Shown: one piece after another, positions 19,062 to 64,000 of the stretch
Numbering within the stretch: position 1 is the stretch's first letter
How the letters are laid out: the number at the start of each line of letters is the position of its first letter
Sequence record: MH791409.1
Direction: 5' to 3' (one strand)
Source of the DNA: Escherichia phage EcWhh-1
DNA length: 64,000 nt
Notes under the pieces: model-generated
What the model was told of the DNA's origin: nothing
The model's input: only the letters and a program-made list of their open reading frames with translations
The model's database searches: none
Translations under genes and position numbers: made by a program

Positions 19062-19835
19062 ATGGCAGTTGAAGGACCGTGGGTAGGATGGTCTGCAAGG
19101 GTACAAACTGGAGACCCTTGGATGGCAGGAGCAGCCGTAAGATTAAGAATGGGTGTTCCGTTTTGGATGAGTAATATGATAGGTCGATCTGTTGAAGTAA
19201 TTCACACACTTGGGGCAGATCATAACTTTAACGGACAATGGTTTAGAGACCGTTGTTTTGAAGCCGGTGGTGCTCCTATCGTGTTTAACATAACTGGGGA
19301 CTTAGTATCTTATACTAAAGACGTTCCATTATTCTTTATGTATGGAGATACCCCTAACGAATATGTTACTTTGAATATTCATGGTGGTGTTCATATGTGG
19401 GGCCGAGGTGGCAACGGTACAGTAAATGGAAACCCAGGCACTAATGGTGGTGACGTAATCCAAAATGATATTGGTGGACGACTTCGCATTTGGAATTATG
19501 GTGTGATAGCCTCCGGTGGTGGCGGCGGCGGTGGCGTATCATTACAGAATAGTTGGCCTGCAAATTCTACAGCAGGTGGTGGAGGCGGCAGACCATTTGG
19601 TCTCGGCGGCGGTGGTGTTAATTGGCCAGGCGGCAATGCTAGTTATGTTGGTCCAGGTGGCGGTGGTAATGCAAGCCAATTTGGCGGTGGCAATGGTGGT
19701 GATGCTGGAGGTTGGGGCGGAGATGGATGGGGTAAAAACTTATCCAGGTCAGGTGGTGGTGCTCCTGGTAGAGCAGTATTCGGTTCCTCCCCATCATGGG
19801 GCGCTACAGGCACTATCTACGGCTCTTGGTTATAA
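19062..19835 (+). CDS. 38: long tail fibre tip adhesin gp38 (T2-type, glycine-rich motifs)
   Basis: Begins [10 protein letters not shown]; poly-Gly runs ([24 protein letters not shown]) separated by variable segments. The ORF track starts at a TTG at 19050; the ATG at 19062 with GGAGG 5 nt upstream is the likelier start. Confidence 0.88.
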
Positions 19836-19851
19836 TACGAAAGTATTAAAT

Positions 19852-19859
19852 TATAAATA
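19852..19859 (+). promoter_or_regulatory. T4-type late promoter (TATAAATA) for holin t
   Basis: Exact TATAAATA 18 nt upstream of the t ATG. Confidence 0.8.
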
Positions 19860-19877
19860 TCTTTAAAGGAGAAAAGT

Positions 19878-20531
19878 ATGGAACCAAAAGTAGGATTTTC
19901 ATTATCAGACCTACTTTTTGGACTTCTTGATAGAATTTTTAAAGATACTTCTTCCGGGAAAGTAGTTTTTTCCCGGGTCCTAGTCGTAATATTATTGTTC
20001 TTTATGGCATTAGTTTGGTATAAAGGCGAGTATATTCTAAACTTTTATAAAGAGACAACTTATGCCTCTTATACTGAAATGATTAGACAAGACCAGGACA
20101 ATAGATTTAAAATTGCGGCTATCGAGCAGCTCCGAATAGTGCATTCTTCTTCAGGCGCAGACTTCACAGCAATATATTCTTTTAGACCAACCAACATGAA
20201 TTATTTTGTGGACATGGTTGCTTATGAGGGTAAATTACCGGAAACGGTAGACGCAAAAAATACGGGAGGGTTTCCAATTGACAAAACGTCAGTAGAATAT
20301 ATGGCGGGAGTTAACGGGAACTATTTTGAATCAAGTACCGAAACTGTATTCCTTCCTACAAAGAAGAAAACACAATTCACGTATATGTTTTCATGCCCGT
20401 TTTTTAATTTGGATAACATCTATGCCGGCTCGATATCATTATATTGGTATGATATCAAACCGGATTTAGGATTTCCTAGACTTTCGTCTATGTGTGGTCA
20501 GGCTGGGAGAACATTAGGTCGAACTCGTTAA
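19878..20531 (+). CDS. t: holin T
   Basis: 217-aa ORF with one N-terminal TM segment and a large periplasmic domain; conserved YSFRP.NMNYFVDM.AYEGKLP and FLPTKK...YMFSCPFFNLDNIYAG blocks match recalled T4 holin. Confidence 0.94.
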   Translation: MEPKVGFSLSDLLFGLLDRIFKDTSSGKVVFSRVLVVILLFFMALVWYKGEYILNFYKETTYASYTEMIRQDQDNRFKIAAIEQLRIVHSSSGADFTAIYSFRPTNMNYFVDMVAYEGKLPETVDAKNTGGFPIDKTSVEYMAGVNGNYFESSTETVFLPTKKKTQFTYMFSCPFFNLDNIYAGSISLYWYDIKPDLGFPRLSSMCGQAGRTLGRTR

Positions 20532-31413: not shown

Positions 31414-31420
31414 ATTTTTC

Positions 31421-31624
31421 TCAATTCAGGTTACGTTTAAAAATATCTGCTACTTCAAGGAGCTCTTCCTTAGTAGCGATGTCGTTGAGTATTTTATATC
31501 TGATTTCTTTAAAGCGTTCTTTAAAATCTTCAGCTGCATTGATATCAAAAAATCTCTGGATTAGCCGGAATTCTTTGTGGACAGCTTTATCAAACAAATC
31601 AATGTTGACTTTAAAGTTTGTCAT
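31421..31624 (-). CDS. hypothetical protein (rIIA.1 position)
   Basis: 67-aa ORF. Confidence 0.45.
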   Translation of the reverse strand: MTNFKVNIDLFDKAVHKEFRLIQRFFDINAAEDFKERFKEIRYKILNDIATKEELLEVADIFKRNLN

Positions 31625-31934
31625 TTTTAACTACCTCATGTTGAACATATTCTCTGGTAGAACCCAGTTCAGCCAGAATTCTTCTCATAGAACCCATTGT
31701 ACTTTTGTGCTCTCTGTGGCGATACAATATCTCTAGAACCTTTTCCTGGACAATAGGAGAGAGCGCCTGGTTATCTTTAATCTTTAAGGCAATAGATTTT
31801 ACAGCCTTGAGATATTCTAGTCCCTTGCCGCTTGTAATCACTACTCCTTCGTCTTTACAATTGCGAATTGCCGTCTCCATAAAAGACAAAGCCAAGTTGT
31901 CAGTGTTCACTATACTATTATCTTGCATAATCAT
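31611..31934 (-). CDS. hypothetical protein
   Basis: 107-aa ORF. Confidence 0.45.
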   Translation of the reverse strand: MIMQDNSIVNTDNLALSFMETAIRNCKDEGVVITSGKGLEYLKAVKSIALKIKDNQALSPIVQEKVLEILYRHREHKSTMGSMRRILAELGSTREYVQHEVVKNDKL

Positions 31935-31980
31935 ATTCTCACCTCTTAGAGAATCGTATCACACTTTTAATCTGTTGTAA

Positions 31981-32006
31981 ACCCCGAAAAGGGCCTTGCG
32001 GCCCTT
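31981..32006 (-). terminator. rho-independent terminator downstream of gene 39
   Basis: Minus-strand AAGGGCC-GCAA-GGCCCUU hairpin followed by UUUCGGGGUUU. Confidence 0.6.
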
Positions 32007-32212
32007 AATTAGTTGCTTGAATCGACTCTATAAACTTGACCACGGGTTTGGTAAACTTCGCCGTCCCATGTTTCAACTGTGATAGTAACGTACTCGGCAA
32101 AAAGAGGACGTGTATCTGTCCAGAGATAACCATATTCACCTGTGACGAGCGTAACCCAGTACTTTCTCATAAAGTCTCCTTTTATACGGTACTCATGTAC
32201 CGTACGTATTTA

Positions 32213-34033
32213 TTATGACATCCAAGCCTTACGCAGCTGTGGGTCGTTTCCAAGGAGCATTTCGAACTGGTCTTTCCAATCTTCAGGTAATTGAACTACA
32301 TCGAATTTAGGGTCTTGAATCATTCGACGGTATTCAGCCTTCTCAAGAGAACCGAGTCCTTTAATATAACGAATAGAATGCTTAGGTAGAGAGTCCTTAG
32401 CTTTGGTATAACTAGGTACATCATAGAACCATTCCTGTTCTTTACCAACCTGAGCAATGATTACAGGAGTCTTACAGAAACGAATTCGTCCCTGTTCAAA
32501 CAATTCCGGCCACTGACTAAAGAAAGCTAATAACGAAGGATAAATCGAACCAGTACCATCCACATCGGCGTCAGTCATGATAGCGATATTACGATAGTTG
32601 GTTTTATCTGCAGGTTCACCAATAACCAGTCCAGTGATTGCACAGATATCAAACAATTCTTTGTTCTTCATGATATCGGCAGCAGTCATACCCCAGGTAT
32701 TCATAACCTTTCCGCGTAACGGATAACCACCTTGGAGGTCTTTATTACGAACTTCAATGAAAGGACCCATTGCAGAATCACCTTCCGTAAGGAATAAAGT
32801 CGTATCAGCATCTTTGCCATACATATTGGCTTTAATATGCTTATGGACCTTGGCTTTCAAAGCTTTCTTAGCAGCTTTTGTTTCGGCAGCCTTTTCAGCA
32901 GCGAGCTTACGTGCTAATGCAGCCTCAATAATAGGCATCAACACAGCTTCATTAGCTAATATGGATTTAGCTAGTTTTTTAGAATCTAACTGAATATGCG
33001 AACGAATTTCACCATACGGCGATGTTAGACGTTCTTTAGTCTGGGAATCGAATCGCATATTTTTCATGCTTCGCACAAACATCAGCATCGTTAAACATTC
33101 TTTAATACGGGCTTTGGTTACTTCAATTTTAAACTTACGCTTAATTTGTGGGATAAGCTCGTCACAAATATCATCCATAACACATTCAACGTGGTGACCA
33201 CCGTTTTTAGTATGAATATTGTTCACGTACGTTAATTGTCGGAATCCATCAGGAGAGCGTCCTATAGATATCGAACAATTGTCCTGTTCTTGGATAATGC
33301 ACTCTTCGTCGAACTGTTTGGCGTATTTTTTAAACGACCCTTGGATTTTCTTACCATTAAATTTAAATTCAATATCAGGATAAATGACTGCTAAGGTTTG
33401 AAGTCGGTCAATGGTAATATCTTGATAAATTTTTTCAAATTGGTTCATTTCAAAGTGGCTAAAATCAGGTACAAATTCTACTTTGGTTCCATTAGTTTTA
33501 GATGGCTTTGATTTCCAAGAAACGTTTTCAGCGTTATTAGAGCAGTTAACAATAAGTTCAGATTTACCATCAGAAGTTGTGCCTGTAAACATCACAGAGA
33601 ATATATTTGTTAAACTGGAACCGACACCGTTTTGACCACCGGTAACACGTTCAGAGTCATCACCAAAGTTACCGCCTGCCTTGGTTTTTGTCCAAGCCGC
33701 GACGGGTCCTGGGATTTCTTCACCTTCAGGAGTAACCACTAGAGCTTGAGGAATACCACGGCCATTATCTTCTACAGTAACCTTATTAGAACTTAAATCA
33801 ATGCTTACTGAAATTTTGTTGGCAAACTTAAAATTAGTACGAATAGCTTCATCAACTGAGTTATCGATGATTTCATCAACTAATTTAAGAACACCCGCTA
33901 CATACCGTACTTTGGTAAACTCGCCGAAAAGAAATCGTTCATGGTCTTCAAATGATACACTTCCGATGTACATTCCAGGACGCTTAAGAACGTGTTCCTT
34001 ATCTGAAAGCATTTCAATTTTATTATCAATCAT
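32213..34033 (-). CDS. 39: DNA topoisomerase II large subunit gp39 (GyrB-like), full-length single ORF
   Basis: 606-aa ORF with HATPase_c and TOPRIM motifs; about 90 aa longer than T4 gp39, consistent with fusion of the gene 39 and gene 60 coding regions. Confidence 0.93.
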   Translation of the reverse strand: MIDNKIEMLSDKEHVLKRPGMYIGSVSFEDHERFLFGEFTKVRYVAGVLKLVDEIIDNSVDEAIRTNFKFANKISVSIDLSSNKVTVEDNGRGIPQALVVTPEGEEIPGPVAAWTKTKAGGNFGDDSERVTGGQNGVGSSLTNIFSVMFTGTTSDGKSELIVNCSNNAENVSWKSKPSKTNGTKVEFVPDFSHFEMNQFEKIYQDITIDRLQTLAVIYPDIEFKFNGKKIQGSFKKYAKQFDEECIIQEQDNCSISIGRSPDGFRQLTYVNNIHTKNGGHHVECVMDDICDELIPQIKRKFKIEVTKARIKECLTMLMFVRSMKNMRFDSQTKERLTSPYGEIRSHIQLDSKKLAKSILANEAVLMPIIEAALARKLAAEKAAETKAAKKALKAKVHKHIKANMYGKDADTTLFLTEGDSAMGPFIEVRNKDLQGGYPLRGKVMNTWGMTAADIMKNKELFDICAITGLVIGEPADKTNYRNIAIMTDADVDGTGSIYPSLLAFFSQWPELFEQGRIRFCKTPVIIAQVGKEQEWFYDVPSYTKAKDSLPKHSIRYIKGLGSLEKAEYRRMIQDPKFDVVQLPEDWKDQFEMLLGNDPQLRKAWMS

Positions 34034-34703
34034 TATGTTTTCTCTCGAATTGTTTTAAAATATTTTTATAGGACCCTTCAGGAAATCCACGTTTAATACT
34101 TTCTTTCATGAATTTAGCCAGTTTAGGTTTATCTAATTCTAACCATAAATCTTCTAAAGCGGATTCATATTCCCAAACAGGGCTTTTACGATTTTTAAGA
34201 CCGCATTTGATTAAGGCCTCGTCTGTATGTTTCTTACCAAAGAAAGGGTTGTTTTCTTTAGCCATTGCTTTGGAATGTTCAGGGCGTTTAATCCCATACA
34301 TAGGGTTAAGTTCACCTAATTTAAGGCCTGATTGGATTTTTATAGTTTCATGAGAATGATGTTTGTTAAAGAAAGGATTGTTTTCTTTACTAACGTCGGA
34401 GCCGAAAAATCCTTTAGGTGCTGCAGTTGCTCTATTAAAAAATAAATCAGATTTAGCCGCATTATTAAGGACTTGATACTTATACTCCGCTTTAGTAGCT
34501 TCTTCTCTTGTCTCGAATTCTTCAACTATCAAACTATCGAAAAGCTCAGGATGGGCAGCCAATTCAGACTTGTAAATCTCTTGGTACTTTTTAGATTTTA
34601 CGGAGCCGTGGTATCCGTTTAAATGTTTTTCTAGGCTAGTCGAACCTATATAAAATGGAGGTAATTTGTCTCCGGAATAAATCGTCAAGTAAACTATAAA
34701 CAT
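34026..34703 (-). CDS. GIY-YIG homing endonuclease (Seg-like) with NUMOD-type DNA-binding repeats
   Basis: N-terminus IVYLTIYSGDKLPPFYIGST is a GIY-(10)-YIG module; C-terminal repeats NNPFFNKHHSHETIKIQSG and LNPMYGIKRPEHSKAMAKENNPFFGKKHTDEALIKCG resemble NUMOD3 motifs; stop overlaps the gene 39 start by 8 nt. Confidence 0.8.
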   Translation of the reverse strand: MFIVYLTIYSGDKLPPFYIGSTSLEKHLNGYHGSVKSKKYQEIYKSELAAHPELFDSLIVEEFETREEATKAEYKYQVLNNAAKSDLFFNRATAAPKGFFGSDVSKENNPFFNKHHSHETIKIQSGLKLGELNPMYGIKRPEHSKAMAKENNPFFGKKHTDEALIKCGLKNRKSPVWEYESALEDLWLELDKPKLAKFMKESIKRGFPEGSYKNILKQFERKHND

Positions 34704-44598: not shown

Positions 44599-45138
44599 TT
44601 AATAACCTCGGTCTTGACGAGCAAAGTTCTCGGCATTTTTCAGGTAATACAGTTTAAAGATTTCTTCAGCGGTCAGTCCAAGACCCTGGAACATATTCAG
44701 AACAAAGTGCAGAATATCAATCATTTCGAATTTAATTTCGAGCTGGTCTTCAGGAGACAAATCGTTAATCAGGGTTTCACGACGTTCAGCATGTTGAGCT
44801 TTCCAAGGCTTCCATACTGCAGATGCATCTTTTTCACCATTGCTCATACCACCAAGAGAAGTCAGAAGTTCACGGAATTCGTCATCAATATAATCTTTCT
44901 GGTTGCGAAGCCAATCGACAACTTCACCCGCAGTGGCCAAATCATCAGGATGACGATTATATTCAGGCTTATCTTTAGCTAAACGAACCTGCAAAGATTT
45001 CTGCATATCAAGCATAACCTGCAGAGGGTCTTTATCTTCGTGAATCAGAGCATTAAAATAAGCTTCTTCAGCTTTATCGGCACCGGCAATCAGTTGAGAA
45101 CATTCATTAAAATGAGCCATTATATTTTTCCTTATCAA
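44599..45138 (-). CDS. 56: dCTP pyrophosphatase gp56 (MazG-like)
   Basis: 179-aa ORF; from MAHFNECSQLIAG the sequence matches recalled T4 gp56 through the C-terminal FKLYYLKNAENFARQDRGY. Confidence 0.92.
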   Translation of the reverse strand: MIRKNIMAHFNECSQLIAGADKAEEAYFNALIHEDKDPLQVMLDMQKSLQVRLAKDKPEYNRHPDDLATAGEVVDWLRNQKDYIDDEFRELLTSLGGMSNGEKDASAVWKPWKAQHAERRETLINDLSPEDQLEIKFEMIDILHFVLNMFQGLGLTAEEIFKLYYLKNAENFARQDRGY

Positions 45139-50319: not shown

Positions 50320-50633
50320 CTCTTAGATTTAATTTTATCCAGTTCTTCTTGTATTTGCATTGTAACACATTTTTCTACATGAAGCGCTAGCTCTTCTTTT
50401 CGGTCTTCGGAAGGTGTTCCGAAATCAACCGACACTTTTCCATCTTTCTCAATAACAATATTCATCACATAAACGATGTGAGCAGTGCCATCGGGTAAAG
50501 TAAGCATAATTTCCTGCTTAACAGAACCCATTGACTTACGGATTATATCTAATGATTTCTCATAATAACGAGGGTCACTAGGACCCTCTTCGGTATCTTT
50601 AACAAAATTATCTAAATCAGATAAATCAGTCAT
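50304..50633 (-). CDS. 40: gp40-position protein (head assembly factor)
   Basis: 109-aa ORF between uvsX and 41 as in T4; assignment mainly by position. Confidence 0.6.
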   Translation of the reverse strand: MTDLSDLDNFVKDTEEGPSDPRYYEKSLDIIRKSMGSVKQEIMLTLPDGTAHIVYVMNIVIEKDGKVSVDFGTPSEDRKEELALHVEKCVTMQIQEELDKIKSKRWWKW

Positions 50634-51807
50634 GGTCGCTCACAAAATTCATGTTTTCTAAATCGCTTTCGATGTCAGCAGCGCTTTGGGTATTTCCACC
50701 TAATTTAACAGAAACGTTCTTAGAGACACGAGAGTTAATAAGGTCGTTCACTGCATCGTCAACTTCTTTAATAGAATTAATTGCACCGAGCTTATACTTA
50801 TTCTCGATTGCTTCACGGAACGGAGCATGTTTAAACAGTGGTCCCCAGAACTCAACACAATCGGTAGCTTTAGCACGCCATGCTTTTTCTTCTTGAACCA
50901 TTTCACCTGTGGTTTCGTCAAGGAATGCACGATTATACCACCCAGCTTTAGGTTTCACGACAAAGCCGATATCAGTAGCCATTTCAAGCAATCCACTGAA
51001 TGGGTCGATACCGCCTTCAAAGTTAACGGTGATAGGGAACGTTGACTTCTCTTTAACCGTACGAGATTTCTCAGCCTTAAGTGTGAAGTCATAACCAGTG
51101 AGCTCAGTACCATCTTTAACCTGGCGTTTAGAGATAAAGAACACGGTAGAAGCAGAGTACAGAATACCAGTACCACCACCCATAATCTCTTTAGGATACA
51201 TTCCACCAATTTCCATAGCCGTGTGGTTAATTGCTACACAAGGGATATCCTTGATGGTCAGATAAGGTGTTACGATACGGAACAGAGATTTCAGTGACTT
51301 AGCACGAGTCATATCACCTACAACTTTCTCGTTCAAAGCATCTTCGGTTTCTTTCTTAGAAGCAGTGTTACCAATGGAGTCGATAAAGATAATAACCTTT
51401 TCGCCACGAGTAATTTCTTCTAACTGGTTGGTCATATCAACTTTAAGCTGTTCGACTGACTGGATTGGTGTATGAACCACACGTTCCAAATCAACACCCA
51501 TCGAACGGAAATAAGATTCTGAAGCACCGAACTCAGAGTCATAGAACAAGCAAATTGCGTCTGGATATTTCTTCATATATGCCGCAACCATAGTTAATCC
51601 AAACAACGTTTTAAAGTGTTTAGACGGTGCAGCAAAGATTGTCAAACCTGATTGTAAGCCTGCATTCAACGCACCACCCAATGCAATATTAAGCATAGGA
51701 ATACGAGTAGGAACTTCGTCACGACCATTAAACAATTTAGATTTGGTCAGGTCGGCAGTCATTTTAGAAGTAGAAGCTTTAATCAAACGGGATTTTAAAT
51801 CAGACAT
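50626..51807 (-). CDS. uvsX: RecA-like recombinase UvsX
   Basis: 393-aa ORF; MSDLKSRLIKASTSK... nearly identical to recalled T4 UvsX over long stretches. Confidence 0.96.
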   Translation of the reverse strand: MSDLKSRLIKASTSKMTADLTKSKLFNGRDEVPTRIPMLNIALGGALNAGLQSGLTIFAAPSKHFKTLFGLTMVAAYMKKYPDAICLFYDSEFGASESYFRSMGVDLERVVHTPIQSVEQLKVDMTNQLEEITRGEKVIIFIDSIGNTASKKETEDALNEKVVGDMTRAKSLKSLFRIVTPYLTIKDIPCVAINHTAMEIGGMYPKEIMGGGTGILYSASTVFFISKRQVKDGTELTGYDFTLKAEKSRTVKEKSTFPITVNFEGGIDPFSGLLEMATDIGFVVKPKAGWYNRAFLDETTGEMVQEEKAWRAKATDCVEFWGPLFKHAPFREAIENKYKLGAINSIKEVDDAVNDLINSRVSKNVSVKLGGNTQSAADIESDLENMNFVSDHD

Positions 51808-51884
51808 TATATTTTTCCATAGGCATCATTATATTTTTCTCACGTTTTAAGATAGGGTAATTATATCACTTCACAGCTACAGCA

Positions 51885-52016
51885 TTACTTAATTCCTCGG
51901 TTGATAGCCTTATCGACTATCTTCCGAACTTCTCGTTTCTCGAGCCACACTAATAATAGCAAGCCTCCGAAAGAGAATAATAACAAACCTATAAAAAGCA
52001 ATAGAGGACCTAGCAT
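51885..52016 (-). CDS. 43-aa hydrophobic peptide
   Basis: Translation MLGPLLLFIGLLLFSFGGLLLLVWLEKREVRKIVDKAINRGIK; start overlaps the stop of the upstream gene. Confidence 0.45.
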   Translation of the reverse strand: MLGPLLLFIGLLLFSFGGLLLLVWLEKREVRKIVDKAINRGIK

Positions 52017-52903
52017 ACTACGTCCTCATAACGTGGCATTTCGTATTCAGAATGAATATTGGCACCGAAATAAATGAATTCAGCCAGACCAGGATGGAAT
52101 ACTAAACCTGGGTTCTCATGATAAATGATATGTGGTCTTGATTTCAGAATTTGATAATATTCAACCTTACTCGGTTTGAATTTAATAATCTCTACATCAG
52201 GACGATAGTCTTCGCGCTTAAATGAATCATTAGGGTCGGTGATATAAAGACGAGCACCTTCAGCGGCAGCTTGGTCTACAACTCTTTCGAATTGATAACA
52301 CTTATCCGAAATACGGAATGGATGGAAAATACCATCAATTTTAATAGGCGCTAGACCTTCAGAGTAACGCTCAATTACTGCAGGATTAATTACCTTTTGG
52401 TCTACAAAAATCTTATCAGAGGATGCACCTCGTGACATCAGGACGTCTTTCTGGCATTGATTCAAGACTGTAGTATAAAGTGAACGTTCAACTGAAGCCA
52501 CATCAATATCAATGAACTCGTCGATATAATAACGAGGAACTTCAGGGTCCATTGTGATATTAAAGTTGAATTGTACAGTATGAGCACCATCATAACCGGT
52601 GATATCGGTCACCAGTCCTGAGCAATCATAGTATTCGATTAGTGAATCGACTACAAACTCATTTTCAGACCAGAAATGTTTACGGGTTTCATAAGCATTT
52701 TCTTTATACCAAAGTGGTACGAAATTCAGTTCTGGGAATAATTCAATGCATTCTTTGATATCGCTCGAATTTCTAGGATAAGCCAGATAATCACCTGGAC
52801 GAGCACGATTTAAATGGAGTTGAAAATTACCGTCCTTAAGGACGGCATATTCACCTGTTTCGTAACTACGCATACTGAAAATAGGAACGATAAACAAACT
52901 CAT
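52010..52903 (-). CDS. hypothetical protein in the T4 bgt position; candidate DNA-modification transferase
   Basis: 297-aa ORF, translationally coupled to the upstream hydroxymethylase; no motif I can assign by eye. Confidence 0.5.
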   Translation of the reverse strand: MSLFIVPIFSMRSYETGEYAVLKDGNFQLHLNRARPGDYLAYPRNSSDIKECIELFPELNFVPLWYKENAYETRKHFWSENEFVVDSLIEYYDCSGLVTDITGYDGAHTVQFNFNITMDPEVPRYYIDEFIDIDVASVERSLYTTVLNQCQKDVLMSRGASSDKIFVDQKVINPAVIERYSEGLAPIKIDGIFHPFRISDKCYQFERVVDQAAAEGARLYITDPNDSFKREDYRPDVEIIKFKPSKVEYYQILKSRPHIIYHENPGLVFHPGLAEFIYFGANIHSEYEMPRYEDVVC

Positions 52904-53598
52904 TTCAGGAAACCTCGGACGTAGTCAAAATCACGTTCAAACACGTGTGCACTTACCATGGTGTGGGAATATGTACCTAAACCGACACCACACTGTTCAG
53001 CAATAAATGCCATCAGTTTACCCTGCAGATAGAAATCCAGCTGCATAACAACGGCGCAGTTTTGTGAACGCATATGAGTGTGTGCATACAGACGTCCATC
53101 ACGAATATAATATGTTACCGAATCGGTACACGGATATTCTAGGGATTCGTCAGAATCAAGGAGGGCTTGGTCTTGTTCTTGGAGAATTTGGAACACAACT
53201 CGTCTCGAGTTAGGCTTTTCTTTAAGCTCTTTAAGTAGGGCTGGGAGTTGGGCCACAATTCGAGGGCCATAGAAAGTGTTGAAGTTTGCAGGCAATACGT
53301 CACTTTTCGGCTTATCAATGAACTTAGCAACATTAGGGTATTCCTTAAATGCTTCGGCAGCGTCAGTACCACCAGAAATCATAAATTTCCAAAAGGATTC
53401 GGCATATTCATAACTAATACGATTGATACGTGGGTCGGTGAATTTATAGGTGCTTGCATCCAGTACTTCTACCGAAGCAGAACCAATTTCATAACAACGT
53501 CCGATACGAGAATCAACTGCAAACTGTGGAGCTTCCAGGATTTCTTCGTTCATTTGTTTAAATGCATTTTCAAAACTAACAGCGGTAATGTGTTTCAT
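52900..53598 (-). CDS. 42: pyrimidine hydroxymethylase of the thymidylate-synthase family, dCMP-hydroxymethylase-like (gp42 homologue)
   Basis: 232-aa ORF; SRR, PCTD (catalytic Cys), YYIRD and MRS blocks align with recalled T4 gp42; Asp 31 residues after the Cys (QLDFY), where thymidylate synthases carry Asn. Confidence 0.8.
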   Translation of the reverse strand: MKHITAVSFENAFKQMNEEILEAPQFAVDSRIGRCYEIGSASVEVLDASTYKFTDPRINRISYEYAESFWKFMISGGTDAAEAFKEYPNVAKFIDKPKSDVLPANFNTFYGPRIVAQLPALLKELKEKPNSRRVVFQILQEQDQALLDSDESLEYPCTDSVTYYIRDGRLYAHTHMRSQNCAVVMQLDFYLQGKLMAFIAEQCGVGLGTYSHTMVSAHVFERDFDYVRGFLK

Positions 53599-54131
53599 TT
53601 ATTCACCTTATTTTCAATATATTCGTTCAGACGTTTTAATTCTACCATATCAACATTAAGCAAATTATTATGGCCGTCATGATTTAAGATTTTAAACACG
53701 TTTTCAAAACATGTTTCGTATTGCCGGATAGTTAGGTTGAACTCATCTTTGGTTAATTTAATAAGGTCGTCTTCGAAGTCTTCGTCTAATGGATTGCGAG
53801 TTAAAATAACCTCGATAACGTTAAATTCGGATTTAAACCCTTTCCAATCTTCCAGTTCTACATAAGGGTCCATTTCACCACGAAGGAATCCTGAGTAAAC
53901 AATATTACTTGGATAACCACGGTCAAGGATATAAACGAAATTAGGGTCTAAAAACTTATACAGAGTTTCAACTAAAGCCTTATCGTTATCAGTTCCTAAT
54001 GAAATACACTTGCCATTAATCTTTTTAGGAAAATCAATAAGGCGGTATTTCTTATTGGATAACAGATTTTTAATTAAAGTGGACTTCCCGGAATTATCCG
54101 GGCCGTCTATAACAATGATTTTTGGATTCAT
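53595..54131 (-). CDS. P-loop kinase (nucleotide/nucleoside-kinase-like)
   Basis: 178-aa ORF with N-terminal Walker A IVIDGPDNSGKST. Confidence 0.65.
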   Translation of the reverse strand: MNPKIIVIDGPDNSGKSTLIKNLLSNKKYRLIDFPKKINGKCISLGTDNDKALVETLYKFLDPNFVYILDRGYPSNIVYSGFLRGEMDPYVELEDWKGFKSEFNVIEVILTRNPLDEDFEDDLIKLTKDEFNLTIRQYETCFENVFKILNHDGHNNLLNVDMVELKRLNEYIENKVNK

Positions 54132-54526
54132 GGATGATAGGCCTTATAACTATCAAGAGTTCCTTCACGAACCATTTCTTTAAAGTGGTCAGGACGGATT
54201 GCTCGGTCATCGATGATAAAAGTATAACTCGGCTTATGCGTAAGCAGATTATGATATTTCAATCCAATCTTTTCAAGGTTCTTAACCAATGCAGGAACTA
54301 CTTCAACCAAGATTCGACCTGGGCCACATGAAGTCATGCCACGGGCAGTGAATAATGTAATCTCGTACCCTTCATCATAAAGCTTATTAATCATGGACAC
54401 CATTTCGGTGTCCGGTTTAAAGTTCTCATAATCACGGTCATGGTTCCAAATCGTGATTGTGTTATCGATATCAAAACATAAATGTGGCTTATTTTCTACT
54501 CGATGCGACATTAAATTTTCTTCCAT
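54128..54526 (-). CDS. HAD-superfamily phosphatase (small, capless)
   Basis: 132-aa ORF with motif I CFDIDNTIT (DxDxT) and C-terminal IIDD motif IV. Confidence 0.7.
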   Translation of the reverse strand: MEENLMSHRVENKPHLCFDIDNTITIWNHDRDYENFKPDTEMVSMINKLYDEGYEITLFTARGMTSCGPGRILVEVVPALVKNLEKIGLKYHNLLTHKPSYTFIIDDRAIRPDHFKEMVREGTLDSYKAYHP

Positions 54527-56184
54527 TGTTTGTGGAGTTCAGTAGAACCTGTAGGTTTATATTTTACACCAGTTTCCTGGTCAAGCAAAACCCACTTATC
54601 AGGACAACGAGTAATAATTTGAGCCGTGATAGGGTCACGAACTTCATCGACAAATTCACCAGTAATAAGCTTACGCTTATGAGGATGCCGCTTCAGCAGC
54701 ACACTCAGTTGATACAAACCGTTATAATAAGCACCCAGAGCTTTCAGAGGGTTATTCTTAAAGTAACCTGCCAGCGCCATCCAAATAACAGCAATCCAGA
54801 GCTTGTGCTTAAATGTGCACATAGGAATATCGTCTAAAGGCATAACCTTTTCGATATCAACGAATACACGAGTTCCGTTACGAGTTAATCCACCCCATAG
54901 AGGGTCTGAGTTAAATTTGTCATAGCCATCGATAGAATAAAGCACCTTAGCTTCATCATAAATCGCAGGGCCTTTAGAACTATTACCGAAATAACCACGT
55001 GGGTCGATGATTTTAATATCACCTTCGTCCGACAGCATAATATTACTGTAGTGCGGGTCGCCATGAATAAGTTGGTACGGTTCTTTATGTTCAGACAGAA
55101 TTTCTAGTGCATGGCGGAGAAGTTTTTCGGGGTCGCCTACTTTGAAATCGTTAACATAGGTAATGCCCTGTGGAGCAAAGCCTTCAATCAATCCGGCAAT
55201 AGAAGCATTACGAATAAGGACCTTGTCCAACACTTCTTTCTTAACATCGGAATACCATTGCTCATCGGACGGGTTATCGATAGTTCCACCGAATGAACGT
55301 AATGCACTAATGACCTTATAAACCATGAGGACTTTAGTTTCTTTGGACATAAACCGGTAGGCATCTGCCATGGTACGACCAAAGATACGTTCCATTTTAA
55401 TGAATTCGCCTGGAGAAAAGTCTACAATGCTAGGAACGAATTCAGAATCAATAGAATTATACCAATTGATTTCTTTAGATTGAATTTCTTTACCTAATTC
55501 GTTAGTTGGTACTTTAATAGCCAGATTCTCGGTGAACTCTAATTTATTAAATTCACGGTTAATTTCAGAATCTTCATGGGCCTTGGCAAGTTTCAATTTG
55601 TCACCGACATCAACTACAAAATCCAGTTTACGTTCAGTCAAATAGACCATTGAATCCAGGTTATCAGCAAGGTCTTCGCCATAATTAGAACGGTCGAAAC
55701 CTGTCCAATTGGCTACCTGATACAAACCAACTACACCGCCACCGGTACCAATTTCACGTAAGTACGGTTCTTCAAATGTAAAGCGACAGTCAGTTCCATA
55801 GGTATAACAATAGTCGTTACCCCATTCAACTTTATGACCGATAGGAATGATGTCACACCAGTTAAACAGGACATTATGGCCAATGATATCTTCGGCAATG
55901 CAATCGATAGCATGAGCTGAACCATTAGCAACATCAACGTTACGAATAGTGAATTTAGGCTTATCACCAGTAATCATGTTAATGGATTTAATATAGCCTT
56001 TAACGAGGTCGTTAAATTTGCTGTGAATAACCAGAATAATTTCATCTGATTGGTTACTATACAAATCATACAAATGTTTTAATACCGTATGTTGTTTGTA
56101 GTTAACCAATACCTTTGGGATTTCGTTAGTAATTGGATACAACCGTGAGCCAAGACCTGCGCCTAAAATAACAACCTTTTTCAT
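54511..56184 (-). CDS. bifunctional protein: N-terminal sugar-1-phosphate nucleotidyltransferase domain fused to C-terminal APH/choline-kinase-like kinase domain
   Basis: N-terminus MKKVVILGAGLGSRLYPITNEIPKVLV matches the RmlA/GlmU G-x-G-x-R-L-Y-P-I-T...PK signature; C-terminal region has Brenner motif LIHGDPHYSNIML plus IIDPRGY. ORF-track start is 56214; the ATG at 56184 has a GAGGAA RBS. Confidence 0.75.
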   Translation of the reverse strand: MKKVVILGAGLGSRLYPITNEIPKVLVNYKQHTVLKHLYDLYSNQSDEIILVIHSKFNDLVKGYIKSINMITGDKPKFTIRNVDVANGSAHAIDCIAEDIIGHNVLFNWCDIIPIGHKVEWGNDYCYTYGTDCRFTFEEPYLREIGTGGGVVGLYQVANWTGFDRSNYGEDLADNLDSMVYLTERKLDFVVDVGDKLKLAKAHEDSEINREFNKLEFTENLAIKVPTNELGKEIQSKEINWYNSIDSEFVPSIVDFSPGEFIKMERIFGRTMADAYRFMSKETKVLMVYKVISALRSFGGTIDNPSDEQWYSDVKKEVLDKVLIRNASIAGLIEGFAPQGITYVNDFKVGDPEKLLRHALEILSEHKEPYQLIHGDPHYSNIMLSDEGDIKIIDPRGYFGNSSKGPAIYDEAKVLYSIDGYDKFNSDPLWGGLTRNGTRVFVDIEKVMPLDDIPMCTFKHKLWIAVIWMALAGYFKNNPLKALGAYYNGLYQLSVLLKRHPHKRKLITGEFVDEVRDPITAQIITRCPDKWVLLDQETGVKYKPTGSTELHKQWKKI

Positions 56185-56244
56185 TATCTGTTCCTCAAGT
56201 GAATGTAGGTACATTATACACTATTTTTAATAAATTTCTATTGC

Positions 56245-56745
56245 TTAAATCTTATCTTTACCGTATTCCATGCACTGTTCTACTGCAGCAGGCACTTTGG
56301 TCTTAAGCTTGTTGATTTGTTTCTTATAATCACGAGCCTTATCGAAGCTCTCGGTTTCGAGCATTTCGTAATAACGAGCCTCGTGGACAGAAATCTGTAG
56401 ATTGATATGGTTTACACACATGGCATACAGTTTCTGCTTTTTGTACAAATCATCTTGGCGCTTCATTTCTGCCTGGTGTTTGGCTAGTACCGCTTCACGC
56501 TTAGACTCTTGTTCACGTTGGAATTCGATTTCCCTTTGAGCATATTTTGCACAGTTATTACCACATTGATTATTAGCTCGGGTGTACACAAGTCCAGAAC
56601 CGGCACGGAATTTCATTTCGCCGTCGAATTGTTTCTGTTCAGCTGCGATACGAGCTTTACCAACTTCATCAGCAGAAACTGCATCACCGTATTGGACTGC
56701 GCAACCTGATAGGAGCATACTCATTGCGATAATTAACTTTTTCAT
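56245..56745 (-). CDS. putative lipoprotein with coiled-coil region
   Basis: 166-aa ORF with signal peptide and lipobox (LLSGC). Confidence 0.55.
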   Translation of the reverse strand: MKKLIIAMSMLLSGCAVQYGDAVSADEVGKARIAAEQKQFDGEMKFRAGSGLVYTRANNQCGNNCAKYAQREIEFQREQESKREAVLAKHQAEMKRQDDLYKKQKLYAMCVNHINLQISVHEARYYEMLETESFDKARDYKKQINKLKTKVPAAVEQCMEYGKDKI

Positions 56746-56752
56746 AATATCC

Positions 56753-56890
56753 TCAATTAAAACAGTTATACTTAATTTGTGCTATAAGAATAATCCATCC
56801 CATGATTAATGTTGGAATCATTGGAGGAATTGCCACTGCCCAATAAACGGTAAAGGCAGCCATTATAAGAAATAAAATAATTATCTTCAT
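56753..56890 (-). CDS. 45-aa hydrophobic peptide
   Basis: Translation MKIIILFLIMAAFTVYWAVAIPPMIPTLIMGWIILIAQIKYNCFN; ATG overlaps the imm stop. Confidence 0.45.
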   Translation of the reverse strand: MKIIILFLIMAAFTVYWAVAIPPMIPTLIMGWIILIAQIKYNCFN

Positions 56891-57123
56891 TGTTTAACGA
56901 TAATGATTTGTGCGTTTGATTTATGTTCAGCGACTATAGCCCAGATTAAAGCCACTACCCAACCAATCATCGTCCACCCTAACAGGAGATTAAGGAAGAA
57001 GATTCCGACATTGCTACGAGTGCCTCGCAGAAGGGCCAGAATCCATGGTAAAAAGTAACCAATGAACATAATAACCAGAGAACCGAATCCTAAAACACCA
57101 GCACTAACGATTAAAGCTTCCAT
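56887..57123 (-). CDS. imm: superinfection immunity protein Imm
   Basis: Start at internal Met MEALIVSAG; two TM segments and a YFLPWILAL motif typical of the Imm family; T4 position next to gene 43. Confidence 0.75.
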   Translation of the reverse strand: MEALIVSAGVLGFGSLVIMFIGYFLPWILALLRGTRSNVGIFFLNLLLGWTMIGWVVALIWAIVAEHKSNAQIIIVKQ

Positions 57124-57154
57124 TGTAATTTCCTCTAAGTAGTTGATAGGAAGG

Positions 57155-57184
57155 ATACTACCACGTTCCTTGTGGTATGTAAAC
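57155..57184 (-). promoter_or_regulatory. early promoter upstream of imm
   Basis: GTTTAC-N18-TAGTAT followed by the conserved CCTTCCTATCAACTA leader. Confidence 0.55.
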
Positions 57185-57186
57185 AC

Positions 57187-59898
57187 TTAAAAGTCGAACA
57201 TATCAAATAATGTTGCTTTTTTCTCGTAGTCGATTTTAGCAGACTCGGTAAAACCAGTTAGAGGCTTGATAAAGGTCTTTTGGAACAGTACGTTGTAGTC
57301 CATCCAACGGAGGACTTGGTCACGAATCTGAACTGGGAGTTCAATACCTGACGGCCATGCCATACAGGCTTCACCAAACGGGTTGCCTTCTTTAAGTGGC
57401 AGTACATATACCTTTTCACCGTCAACGATACGAGGCATAGTCAAATCACCAGCAGAAGCACGCATGTAAGCTAAGCAACCTTTGATGTGGTACGGGCATT
57501 TAGAACCAGGGAATCCGCCTTCATTATATTTCTCGATGTTGTTAGCACTGGATACTGCTGCAATGCTTACATAGTCCAGTTCGTTAAATTCCTTATTAAA
57601 CTGTTTGAAATATTCTTGCAAAGACGCCTCGCCTTCTTGAAGCATACGACGGATACATTCTTTCAGAGCTTTCTGAACAGCTTTAGGTGTACTTGATTTC
57701 TGAGTTTCGAGACCCATGATTTTCAAGTGTGGTTCGGCATAACGAGTGCCTTCCATGTCCCAAACGTTCAGTGCATAACGTTTCTTGCCTGTCCAGAATC
57801 CACCAAGACCTTTAGAACCAAGTGGAGGACCTGCGATAGCTTCTCGGTCCATGAACATCAAGTGTTGTTTGTTGTTCATGTATTCGCACATCTCACGGAA
57901 GCCTGCATCAATAGTCGGTTCCATACGTTCACGTGCAAATTTATCTAAGAAGTCGACCCAGTGGTTAGTGTCACGGAATTTATCTTCGCCTACTTTATTG
58001 ATGATTGCATCTGCCTTAACATAAATGGAGTCAGTATCACCATAGAGCACGAACTTCTGGTTTTCAGTCTTACACACGCTATTCAGATATTCGTTAACCT
58101 TACGTTCAATCCATTGGAGAGCCATTTGACCAAACAGTGTGATTGCAGTTGCGTTCCTGAGGTCGTAATAACGAAACCATACGTTACCAAGTGCACCATA
58201 AAGGGAGTTGATAAGCAACTTACGGTTAATCTGAGCAGTGTTACCTGCAACTTCGGTACGTTCAGCTCTGAACAACATTTCTTTTAAAGAAGAGGCCGAC
58301 AGTTTTTTAATCTGGGCTTTTATTTCATCAGAGAAGTCGAAACGGTAATCGATATCCAGTGGACTATCAACAGACAGATTAGGATTTTCCAATGCTTCTT
58401 TAATTAACTCGCCATTACGTTGGGCTGCAAGCATATAACCTTTATGTTCTTTACGTTGTAAGAACACCTTCGTGATTTCTGTAGGAATCACACCATCACG
58501 GTCTTTATAGTACATCATGCCGTTAGGAGAGCAACTGTAGGTGTCGCTAGGACGCGGAGCAGTTCCGGCAATATATTCATGTATCGGTGCGTTGGCGAAT
58601 GTGCCTGCGATGGTCTCTGGGCTTATATTCACTTGTCGAATGATACTCGGGTACAGAGATGTAAGGTCGAAACTCATTACATATTTGTACGCGTTAGGAA
58701 TAGGTTCCTTAACGAAAGCACCTGGATAAGGTTGAACCGCATGCGATTTGGCCTGAGGAATAACTTTACCCTGTTCTTTAAGGCTATTAAAGATAATAGC
58801 GTCCCAAGTCTTAATTGGACTGAACACCGACTGAATCTGCATCTTAGCATAATAACCCATGTCCAGACTAAGAAGAATGAACTGGCGTTTCATATCAATC
58901 TGCACAACACGATATACGTCGATAATGTTATAGGAAATATATCGTTGGTGGTTCGTCTCACGTAACTTGGAGATAGGACCATCATATTTCAACTTACCTA
59001 CTTTCAATTCATATTCAGAAACATAATCCAGAGAATAAGAAGGCTGGTTAGTAAAGCTGAATTTTTTATAAAGGTCGATATAATCCAGAACAGAGATACC
59101 GAACAGTGTAATAATTTCGCGAACACCGTACATATTCTCGATAACTTTAACACGAGTCTTACGATGTGGGCTTAATCGCTTAGCAGTGTTCTCACCAAAC
59201 AGATTTTTCAGACGGTTATAAACGTATGGCACGTCAAATGATTCAACGTTCCATCCAGTCAAAATCACAGGAGTTTTCTGTTGCCAGAAATTCAGATACT
59301 CAAGCATCATTTCTTCTTCAGAATTAAACGGAAGATAAACGATTTTGTCAATGATTTCTTGTGGAACTTCGTCACCACCTTCGTCTTGGAGTTTCTCAGC
59401 GATTTTAATCGACCACTCTTCGACCGTACCATAAGGTGAAACTAAAAGGTCAAATACATAGAATTTATCATCAATCGAGTCGTAGTGAGTAATGGCATCG
59501 ATAGGATGTTTAGCCTGGGCAGGTTCAGGGAATCCATCAGGGGATGTTACCTCGATGTCGAAGTTAGCAATACGAATCTTGGAAGAATCATACTTGATTT
59601 CTTTACGATAGGTATCAGACAAATAGGCTAATTTATAGTCGTCCATACCAAGGGCTTCGAGACCCATATCGTCCATGCGCTTCATCCACTGAGAAGCATC
59701 GCGCATTGAATCGAATTCTTTCTTAACACAACCCTTACCGTAGATGTCAATATATTTTACGGCTTGCTCTGGGTTAGCGTGCATAAACATTGTAGGCTTG
59801 TAAGGAACTTCACGACTACGTTCGTTACCATTTTTATCGATGTAACGTTCGAGAATATTATCACCGATTTGTTCGACTGTCAAATAGAATTCTTGCAT
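57187..59898 (-). CDS. 43: DNA polymerase gp43 (family B)
   Basis: Exo and pol motifs (FDIEV, YGDTDS, KILINSLYGALG); start taken at MQEFYLTVEQIGDN (ATG 59898), matching recalled T4/RB69 gp43 N-termini; the ORF track extends 20 codons further upstream. Confidence 0.95.
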   Translation of the reverse strand: MQEFYLTVEQIGDNILERYIDKNGNERSREVPYKPTMFMHANPEQAVKYIDIYGKGCVKKEFDSMRDASQWMKRMDDMGLEALGMDDYKLAYLSDTYRKEIKYDSSKIRIANFDIEVTSPDGFPEPAQAKHPIDAITHYDSIDDKFYVFDLLVSPYGTVEEWSIKIAEKLQDEGGDEVPQEIIDKIVYLPFNSEEEMMLEYLNFWQQKTPVILTGWNVESFDVPYVYNRLKNLFGENTAKRLSPHRKTRVKVIENMYGVREIITLFGISVLDYIDLYKKFSFTNQPSYSLDYVSEYELKVGKLKYDGPISKLRETNHQRYISYNIIDVYRVVQIDMKRQFILLSLDMGYYAKMQIQSVFSPIKTWDAIIFNSLKEQGKVIPQAKSHAVQPYPGAFVKEPIPNAYKYVMSFDLTSLYPSIIRQVNISPETIAGTFANAPIHEYIAGTAPRPSDTYSCSPNGMMYYKDRDGVIPTEITKVFLQRKEHKGYMLAAQRNGELIKEALENPNLSVDSPLDIDYRFDFSDEIKAQIKKLSASSLKEMLFRAERTEVAGNTAQINRKLLINSLYGALGNVWFRYYDLRNATAITLFGQMALQWIERKVNEYLNSVCKTENQKFVLYGDTDSIYVKADAIINKVGEDKFRDTNHWVDFLDKFARERMEPTIDAGFREMCEYMNNKQHLMFMDREAIAGPPLGSKGLGGFWTGKKRYALNVWDMEGTRYAEPHLKIMGLETQKSSTPKAVQKALKECIRRMLQEGEASLQEYFKQFNKEFNELDYVSIAAVSSANNIEKYNEGGFPGSKCPYHIKGCLAYMRASAGDLTMPRIVDGEKVYVLPLKEGNPFGEACMAWPSGIELPVQIRDQVLRWMDYNVLFQKTFIKPLTGFTESAKIDYEKKATLFDMFDF

Positions 59899-59930
59899 TT
59901 CATTTCCTTTATAGACGAGTGATTGTCTTT
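59899..59930 (-). promoter_or_regulatory. candidate gp43 autogenous translational operator
   Basis: Minus-strand hairpin AGAC-AAUCACUC-GUCU (8-nt loop) immediately 5' of the gene 43 RBS AAGGAAA. Confidence 0.5.
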
Positions 59931-59952
59931 TGTTTGTTGATGAATCATTATA

Positions 59953-59976
59953 CTCCAAAAAGGGACTTCGGTCCCT
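59953..59976 (-). terminator. terminator hairpin between the regA-proximal ORF and gene 43
   Basis: Minus-strand AGGGAC-CGAA-GUCCCU followed by UUUUUGG, then a TATAAT hexamer. Confidence 0.6.
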
Positions 59977-63350: not shown

Positions 63351-63542
63351 TTAATCAAAGTACTCATAGACAAACCATGCTGGATTTCTATTTGACATGA
63401 TTGTAACATATTCTGACTTAAAAGCATTTTGGAGATAATCTTCAGTAACAAGATGTTCGTCTCCAGAGAAGTTGTTAACTAAAACATATCTCTTTATTTC
63501 TGGAACGGCCAACAAATGCTGGCCTGTTATAAAATCACTCAT
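63351..63542 (-). CDS. hypothetical protein (45.2 position)
   Basis: 63-aa ORF between rpbA and 46. Confidence 0.5.
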   Translation of the reverse strand: MSDFITGQHLLAVPEIKRYVLVNNFSGDEHLVTEDYLQNAFKSEYVTIMSNRNPAWFVYEYFD

Positions 63543-64000
63543 TCTAACACCGTGAATCGCCCAACTTTCTTCATTTGAAGATGTTGGCCATAAGCTTGTG
63601 GGTCATGGTCTCGGTGAGAGATAATGAACACGTTCGTATCCTCAAGGCTATTCAAGATGGTTGCAATGCTCTTAACGCCTTCAGAATCCGTGGCACTGTC
63701 AAATACCTCATCAAGAATCAGTGTGGATATATTAACACCTGATACCCTAGAAGCAATATCACGCCATGTAAAAAGTAGTGCGATATCAATACGTGCTTTC
63801 TCACCCTGTGAAAATGAAGCATAACTAAAGTCTTCACGTCCACGTGATTTAATCGTCTCATTGAATTCTTCGTCTAGGGTAAAGACGTAGTCCGCTTCCA
63901 TAATCTTCAAATAAGAATTAATCTGCTTATTAAAGATAGGAATGTATTTCTTAATAATGGAACCTTTAATACCTGTATCCTTCAACATTTCTGTCAGAAT
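63539..64000 (-). CDS. 46: recombination endonuclease subunit gp46 (Rad50/SbcC-like), C-terminal part only (gene continues beyond window end)
   Basis: C-terminal ABC-ATPase motifs: signature FSQGEKARIDIALLF, Walker B LILDEVFDS, H-loop FIISHR. Confidence 0.85.
   Translation of the reverse strand: MLTEMLKDTGIKGSIIKKYIPIFNKQINSYLKIMEADYVFTLDEEFNETIKSRGREDFSYASFSQGEKARIDIALLFTWRDIASRVSGVNISTLILDEVFDSATDSEGVKSIATILNSLEDTNVFIISHRDHDPQAYGQHLQMKKVGRFTVLE

Follow-up and report, generated by a model that had tools for sequence, protein, structure and literature searches.

Escherichia phage EcWhh-1 (sequence record MH791409.1) carries, within the 64,000-nucleotide stretch analysed here (the window), five co-oriented and overlapping genes on the minus strand at 52010-56214, which most probably form the Dhakavirus version of the pathway that places arabinofuranose on 5-hydroxycytosine (ara-5hoC) in phage DNA; the probability of this reading is put at about 0.85. 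The pathway was published between 2018 and 2026, in work that mentions Dhakaviruses by name, so that the system as such is already known. The five genes and the motifs YPCTD, IVIDGPDNSGKST, CFDIDNTIT, GAGLGSRLYPIT...PKVLV and HGDPHYSNIML were all found where a preliminary description, made from the sequence alone, had placed them. Its proposal of a DNA hypermodification module holds, in that a thymidylate synthase (TS)-fold pyrimidine-modifying enzyme is coupled to a nucleotidyltransferase-kinase fusion and a HAD phosphatase that together synthesise a nucleoside diphosphate-sugar donor, and the likeness to the arabinose system of phage RB69 that it had pointed out was borne out by the orthology of the proteins. 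The identity of all five proteins rests here on homology, motif or fold, and the reactions ascribed to the hydroxylase, to AfhE and to AfhF come from the publications on their orthologues.

It was reported that in RB69 and in Acinetobacter phage DLP3 deoxycytidine is replaced by arabinofuranosylated 5-hydroxycytosine, the sugar being ether-linked straight to C5 through an oxygen that derives from 5-hydroxy-dCMP (Lee et al., NAR 2026, PMC13326640). For RB69, the modification had been assigned as arabinosyl-5-hydroxymethylcytosine (arabinosyl-hmC) (Thomas et al. 2018, PMC6024577), which was the form named in the preliminary description; this assignment was revised by nuclear magnetic resonance and 18O2 labelling (PMC13326640), and an independent study of a related Mosigvirus also found the sugar on C5 with no methylene (PMC13390438). 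Dhakaviruses were listed among the genera with clusters syntenic for the synthesis of 5-hydroxydeoxycytidine (5hodC) (PMC13326640), and gp43 of Dhakavirus IME08 was noted in 2018 as a full-length homologue of ORF53_52c (PMC6024577). Earlier, in a 2010 review, JS98 and RB69 were recorded as carrying gene 42 and no glucosyltransferase, with a modification that was then unknown (PMC2993671).

In the proposed scheme, two branches would meet on the DNA. The gene 56 dCTPase would yield dCMP, which the TS-fold enzyme (52900-53598) would hydroxylate at C5 with flavin and O2 to give 5-hydroxy-dCMP (5hodCMP); kinases, namely the gp1 deoxynucleoside monophosphate (dNMP) kinase and possibly also a thymidylate kinase (TMPK)-like kinase (53595-54131), would raise this product to the triphosphate, and the phage polymerase would incorporate it instead of dC. 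On the sugar side, the fusion's C-terminal kinase domain would phosphorylate D-arabinose-5-phosphate at C1, the HAD enzyme would take off the 5-phosphate, and the N-terminal domain of the fusion would convert arabinofuranose-1-phosphate (Araf-1-P) and UTP to UDP-arabinofuranose (UDP-Araf). A 297-amino-acid enzyme of the GT-B fold would finally move arabinofuranose onto the 5-hydroxyl.

Over its 4.2 kb, the region shares 99.5% identity with Escherichia phage UP19 and 98% with JS10 and JS98, all of the genus Dhakavirus (Straboviridae, Tevenvirinae), and the window was assigned to this genus. The five genes bear, in the records of these phages, the names hypothetical protein, thymidylate synthase, thymidylate kinase, phosphoheptose isomerase and hypothetical protein, and homologues elsewhere in GenBank bear the misleading name dCMP hydroxymethylase; most existing annotations of the five genes are uninformative or wrong. 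Since each gene has strong homologues among the RB69 proteins (E from 6e-36 to 4e-147), the genes are real and not chance open reading frames (ORFs). With a G+C content of 0.388, the module is equal in this respect to the window (0.393), which argues against a recent foreign insert.

Base modification and transfer

The TS-fold enzyme (52900-53598, minus strand, 232 amino acids) is of the RB69 gp48 type, with 80% identity to that protein (E 4e-147) and 25% to T4 gp42; its closest solved structures are PDB 9iqu, 9iqc and 9ir2 (E about 2e-126). It was aligned with E. coli ThyA, T4 gp42 and RB69 gp48, the numbering of the ThyA sequence reproducing the published Y94, C146 and S167. C146, L143E, N177D and D169N are all present in the window protein, and T4 gp42 retains Asp at position 169. 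D169N is the published diagnostic of 5hodCMP synthases, and 5hodC was formed by each of the nine natural homologues with D169N that were assayed (9/9); RB69 gp48 and DLP3 gp80 are flavin-binding TS homologues that make 5hodCMP with oxygen from O2 (PMC13326640). Judged by its sequence, the window enzyme is a flavin-dependent 5-hydroxy-dCMP synthase and not a hydroxymethylase, and the earlier suggestion that it makes hydroxymethyl-dC was given up on account of D169N and the two identities.

Searches of the genome beyond the module covered the window and the rest of UP19, a whole Dhakavirus genome being composed of the window and UP19 32000-144000, with a few hundred bases inside nrdB left uncovered. 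No second gp42-like gene was found in it by tblastn. The gene 56 dCTPase/dUTPase lies outside the module (44599-45120, minus strand); it is 91% identical to RB69 gp56 (E 4e-123), and its homologue is annotated in UP19 as a nucleoside triphosphate pyrophosphohydrolase. By homology, it is the functional partner, eliminating dCTP and providing dCMP. The UP19 annotation also lists a gp1-type dNMP kinase, which lies outside the window.

The 297-amino-acid protein (52010-52903, minus strand) had been described as having no recognisable motif. No real match was obtained for it in sequence searches of Pfam, NCBIfam or PDB, where chance matches such as a C-type lectin (E 0.2) appeared, and in PHROGs it falls in an unnamed family. 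It is, nevertheless, the unbroken counterpart of RB69 gp47 and gp46, with identities of 69% and 65%, and the split of the RB69 gene into two ORFs was attributed to a sequencing error (PMC13326640); DLP3 gp79 is of the same type. An AlphaFold2 model built from an input of 66 homologues has a mean pLDDT (predicted local distance difference test) of 95.3 and adopts a GT-B fold. The top fold match, with a listed figure of 17.5, is the sucrose-phosphate synthase 6kih, which is also the top structural match published for RB69 gp46:47 (PMC13326640); it is followed by BshA (16.7) and PimA (16.0), and the glycosyltransferase of phage HY126 (9iqz) and the T4 alpha-glucosyltransferase (1y6f) give 14.0 and 13.2. 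Pairwise comparison with the T4 beta-glucosyltransferase gave E 0.64, the likeness being at the level of the GT-B fold only. The gene occupies the position of T4 beta-gt and adjoins the hydroxylase gene, and homologues in Acinetobacter phages are 46-50% identical. The protein is predicted, from homology and the modelled fold, to be the first (base-proximal) DNA arabinosyltransferase. The earlier statement that no canonical alpha- or beta-glucosyltransferase is recognisable in the window is right as regards sequence homologues, but a GT-B transferase is present in this protein.

The 178-amino-acid P-loop kinase (53595-54131, minus strand; RB69 gp45 and DLP3 gp78 type) has the TMPK fold and is 38% identical to its RB69 counterpart. 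A trio of hydroxylase, transferase and TMPK-like kinase genes recurs on phage contigs of 383 kb (NCBI) and 356 kb (JGI) with distant homologues of the transferase, and the TS homologues there carry both D169N and N177D. The 356-kb contig also holds a SIS-domain gene, a 522-amino-acid nucleotidyltransferase-APH fusion and a HAD gene, and so the full pathway. In phage RL38JI, the three genes of the trio stand side by side (locus tags 214-216) (PMC13326640). Because the trio is constant across these phages, the TMPK-like kinase appears tied to the modified nucleotide and not to the sugar.

On the 383-kb and 356-kb contigs, the trio has a Flavodoxin_2 (PF02525) gene 0.3-6 kb upstream (L007 6426-9576; L008 1-9682). 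It is plausible that this neighbour supplies reduced flavin to the hydroxylase; no homologue of such a flavin-reductase partner was found in the Dhakavirus genome.

Sugar activation and the number of arabinoses

The fusion gene (54511-56214, minus strand) encodes 567 amino acids as the longest ORF. Within this single ORF, Pfam recognises NTP_transferase (3.4e-08, residues 13-110) and APH (1.3e-05, residues 356-427), and the protein is 44% identical to RB69 gp53 (E 5e-55) and 41% to RB69 gp52 (E 3e-77). On the strength of these matches, it is a sugar-1-phosphate nucleotidyltransferase joined to a C-terminal kinase of the APH/choline-kinase-like kind, corresponding to AfhE and RB69 gp52:53. The HAD protein (54128-54526, minus strand, 132 amino acids) is 62% identical to RB69 gp51 (E 3e-63) and bears the DxD motif CFDIDNT. 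It matches PDB 9iqw (E 5.3e-54), a code that adjoins that of the HY126 glycosyltransferase 9iqz, and 1xpj (E 4.5e-12); its match to the capsule-biosynthesis phosphatase family TIGR01689 of NCBIfam (1.3e-14) lies under the family cut-off. It is predicted to be an Araf-1,5-bisphosphate 5-phosphatase of the AfhF or RB69 gp51 type.

The chemistry of this pair is known from HY126. According to the account given in PMC13326640, where He et al. 2026 is cited, AfhE (gp52:53 type) converts arabinose-5-phosphate to Araf-1,5-bisphosphate, AfhF (the gp51-type HAD enzyme) strips off the 5-phosphate, and the N-terminal domain of AfhE performs the last step to UDP-Araf; AfhE is described there as a kinase for D-arabinose-5-phosphate as well as a UDP-D-arabinose pyrophosphorylase. 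The preliminary description had the HAD enzyme freeing a precursor ahead of the kinase; in HY126, as the same account has it, the order is the reverse, with the HAD enzyme acting after the kinase on Araf-1,5-bisphosphate.

The RB69/HY126 cluster (RB69 gp45-gp55 and gp3) occupies the same slot between uvsX and gene 43 and has the same gene 56 dCTPase partner. Shared orthologues are the hydroxylase (80% identity), transferase 1 (65-69%), the HAD enzyme (62%), the fusion (41-44%) and the TMPK-like kinase (38%). Unlike RB69, the Dhakavirus cluster is without gp55, gp49, the U32-peptidase-like gp50 and the second transferase gp3, and it is transcribed in the order kinase-hydroxylase-transferase, as against hydroxylase-transferase-kinase in RB69. 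DLP3 (gp76-gp83) shares the hydroxylase, transferase 1, TMPK-like kinase, HAD enzyme and fusion (PMC13326640, Table 1) and differs in having the additional transferases gp76 and gp77 and the isomerase gp83, with three arabinoses added. T4 (gp42, alpha-gt, beta-gt, gp56, gp1) relies on folate-dependent hydroxymethylation instead of the flavin/O2 hydroxylation expected here from D169N, and draws on host UDP-glucose where the Dhakavirus donor would be phage-made UDP-Araf; no sequence similarity to its alpha-gt or beta-gt was detected in Dhakavirus.

In the tblastn searches at E <= 1, there was no trace in the Dhakavirus genome of RB69 gp55 (the arabinose-5-phosphate isomerase, with a SIS domain), of gp3 (the second arabinosyltransferase), of gp50 or of T4 beta-gt, and for T4 alpha-gt nothing was better than E 0.076. 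Six large unassigned ORFs were examined with Pfam, which gave RlaP, AAA/STAND, DUF7235 and DUF7275/7277 and no glycosyltransferase. In Mosigviruses, rIIA and gene 39 enclose the RB69-type gp3 gene; the corresponding gap of about 800 bp in the window (31414-32212) contains small ORFs, none of at least 140 amino acids.

Database records give a similar distribution. Transferase 1 was found in 352 phage records (176 of them Escherichia-named), the isomerase in 276 (137) and transferase 2 in 212 (137); about 49 records whose transferase 1 is of the Dhakavirus type (at least 95% identity) explain the excess of 176 over 137 Escherichia-named records. No Dhakavirus occurred among 40 rows sampled from the 276 for the isomerase. 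Klebsiella phages account for 26 transferase-1 records and do not appear in the organism lists for the isomerase or transferase 2. The isomerase, which the characterised members carry, is treated here as an accessory supply gene, and additional transferases as marks of di- and tri-arabinosyl subtypes and not of the family. An isomerase-less minimal architecture may be shared by other genera.

It is rather likely that Dhakaviruses mono-arabinosylate their DNA with host-derived arabinose-5-phosphate. A single transferase would add one arabinose per cytosine and not two or three, so that the expected product is mono-arabosylated 5hoC, compared with mono- and di-arabosylated 5hoC in RB69. The best precedent for a one-transferase product is the distantly related Straboviridae phage Thanatos of Shewanella, likened here by its published description, known for pentosyl-cytosine, which has one arabinosyltransferase and mono-arabinosylated DNA (PMC13326640).

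Arabinose-5-phosphate is made constitutively in E. coli by KdsD and GutQ for the synthesis of 3-deoxy-D-manno-octulosonic acid (Kdo), and a phage isomerase is, in principle, dispensable for that reason; as Dhakaviruses have no isomerase of their own, KdsD and GutQ of the host would be the source. In a rough calculation, a 170-kb genome of about 39% G+C contains about 67,000 cytosines, and a burst of 100-200 would require about 10^7 arabinose units. A cell contains about 2x10^6 lipopolysaccharide (LPS) molecules. The rough demand is of about the same order as the amount of Kdo produced by one cell in a generation, which makes host supply plausible for mono-arabinosylation.

Alternative explanations

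Several points weigh against the ara-5hoC pathway as set out above. No report on Dhakavirus nucleoside chemistry was found in the literature searched, so that both the kind of sugar and the count of sugars are predictions. In vitro, 5hoC DNA was not acted on by the purified DLP3 transferases of the first step (PMC13326640), and hence, for every phage covered by the literature consulted, the transfer step is still a prediction, as is the choice of DNA or nucleotide as its substrate. The sugar specificity of the fusion could differ, as the protein is just 41-44% identical to that of RB69. Finally, the 297-amino-acid transferase is invisible to Pfam, and another divergent transferase could therefore have been missed.

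The substrate of the transferase bears on a variant in which the first arabinose is added before replication. Here, the transferase would act on 5-hydroxy-dCMP, the TMPK-like kinase would phosphorylate the resulting arabinosyl-5-hydroxy-dCMP, a bulky nucleotide that the general gp1 dNMP kinase may refuse, and the polymerase would incorporate a glycosylated deoxynucleoside triphosphate. The joint travel of the trio from Dhakavirus to the 356-383 kb contigs points in this direction, and single first-step transferases failed to arabinosylate 5hoC DNA in experiments whose authors cannot separate nucleotide-level from DNA-level transfer (PMC13326640). This order of events is considered unlikely. 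Improbable, too, is a different pentose on the same 5hoC base, drawn from some other plentiful pentose phosphate of the host, for example ribose-5-phosphate activated by the fusion and the HAD enzyme via ribose-1,5-bisphosphate. The absence of an isomerase from the genome and the modest identity of the fusion to that of RB69 would fit such a sugar, and 5hoC carries galactose and glucose in phage RL38JI (PMC13326640); however, the identities of the HAD enzyme (62%) and the transferase (65-69%) to those of RB69 argue for unchanged substrates, and the supply of arabinose-5-phosphate by the E. coli host takes away the need for an isomerase.

Two further readings depart from 5hoC altogether. In a T4-style route, dCMP would undergo folate-dependent hydroxymethylation and the sugar would be attached to the hydroxymethyl group, giving arabinosyl-hmC. 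Like gp42, whose gene position is occupied here, the enzyme has a TS fold, a catalytic Cys and N177D, the change linked to dCMP specificity; the RB69 modification was named ara-hmC in 2018 (PMC6024577), and databases label the homologues dCMP hydroxymethylase. Against this stand D169N, the 80% identity to a proven 5hodCMP maker compared with 25% to T4 gp42, the revision of the RB69 product to ether-linked 5-hydroxycytosine (PMC13326640) and the Mosigvirus product without methylene (PMC13390438). The route is very improbable and was rejected on D169N and identity. That the module serves the host surface or metabolites, as in the salvage of capsule or LPS precursors unrelated to DNA, is suggested by database names such as phosphoheptose isomerase and capsule biosynthesis protein and by the below-cut-off match of the HAD protein to a capsule biosynthesis phosphatase family. 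Yet a dCMP-modifying enzyme and a TMPK-like kinase are encoded in tight coupling with these genes, amid replication genes, the TS-transferase-kinase trio recurs in distant phage contigs, and the RB69, HY126 and DLP3 orthologues are experimentally tied to DNA arabinosylation in the account given in PMC13326640. The module has no link to host LPS or capsule salvage, and this explanation, which has next to no chance of being correct, is effectively refuted already.

Organization of the locus and significance

The module is flanked by uvsX (50626-51807) on one side and by imm (56887-57186) and gene 43 (57187-59958) on the other. In T4, the equivalent slot has the order uvsX-segA-b-gt-42-imm-imm.1-43, so that the view that the module replaces the bgt/42 locus of T4 is correct. 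The three downstream junctions of the module are 4-nucleotide ATGA overlaps, and the 16-nucleotide overlap between the fusion and HAD genes is a product of choosing the longest ORFs. In the fusion gene, the first ATG (56214) falls within a TATAAT box and lacks a ribosome-binding site; that at 56184 is preceded by a GAGGA Shine-Dalgarno sequence 7 nucleotides upstream and agrees with the N-terminus of RB69 gp53 and with the UP19 annotation. A start at 56184 (557 amino acids) is the more likely one on these signals, and for the HAD gene a start at 54511 (127 amino acids), with a TAATG 1-nucleotide overlap with the fusion gene, appears most likely.

Directly upstream of the fusion gene, a sigma-70-like match (TAGAAA-16-TATAAT, 56213-56240, minus strand) was the top site of the scan, at 10/12, and may start a five-gene transcription unit. 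The totals of promoter and terminator sites in the region are no higher than in shuffled sequences, so that the match is weak evidence and the operon boundaries are tentative; no terminator-like hairpin was found in the scan 3' of the module on the minus strand. The spacer of about 200 bp between the transferase gene and uvsX (51808-52009) contains two GAAAAATATAATG repeats just upstream of uvsX, which may be promoter elements for that gene.

Between the fusion gene and imm lies a 166-amino-acid ORF (56245-56745, minus strand) with a lipoprotein-type signal, MKKLIIAMSMLLSGC..., at about the position of RB69 gp54 and the isomerase gp55. Its PHROG match is 1754, of unknown function, and no Pfam match lies above cut-off. 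In Dhakavirus, imm and this lipoprotein-like gene separate the cluster from gene 43, unlike in RB69.

Elsewhere in the window, a 225-amino-acid homing-endonuclease-like ORF of the GIY-YIG/NUMOD3 kind (34026-34703, minus strand) overlaps the gene for the topoisomerase large subunit (32213-34033) at that gene's end. UP19 has a 684-bp homing-endonuclease gene beside gene 46 (positions 19733-20416 of UP19 segment L006, facing window 63541-63543). The alignment of the window with UP19 jumps over this gene, and identity beyond it falls from 98.9% to 80%; the phage of the window appears to be without the gene.

In the ara-5hoC pathway, a TS-fold enzyme has been switched from folate one-carbon transfer to flavin/O2 hydroxylation. 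The pathway also provides phages with a sugar coat that alters how sensitive they are to restriction, CRISPR and type IV defence systems, a matter of relevance to therapeutic coliphages, and Dhakavirus relatives of the window's phage have been named in phage-therapy-oriented studies. For this window, the value of the assignment is corrective rather than new, given the misleading GenBank annotations of the five genes. Among the clusters compared, that of Dhakavirus is the smallest coliphage version, and with five genes, one transferase and no isomerase it would make a convenient minimal system for the study of mono-arabinosylation and of the dependence on host arabinose-5-phosphate.

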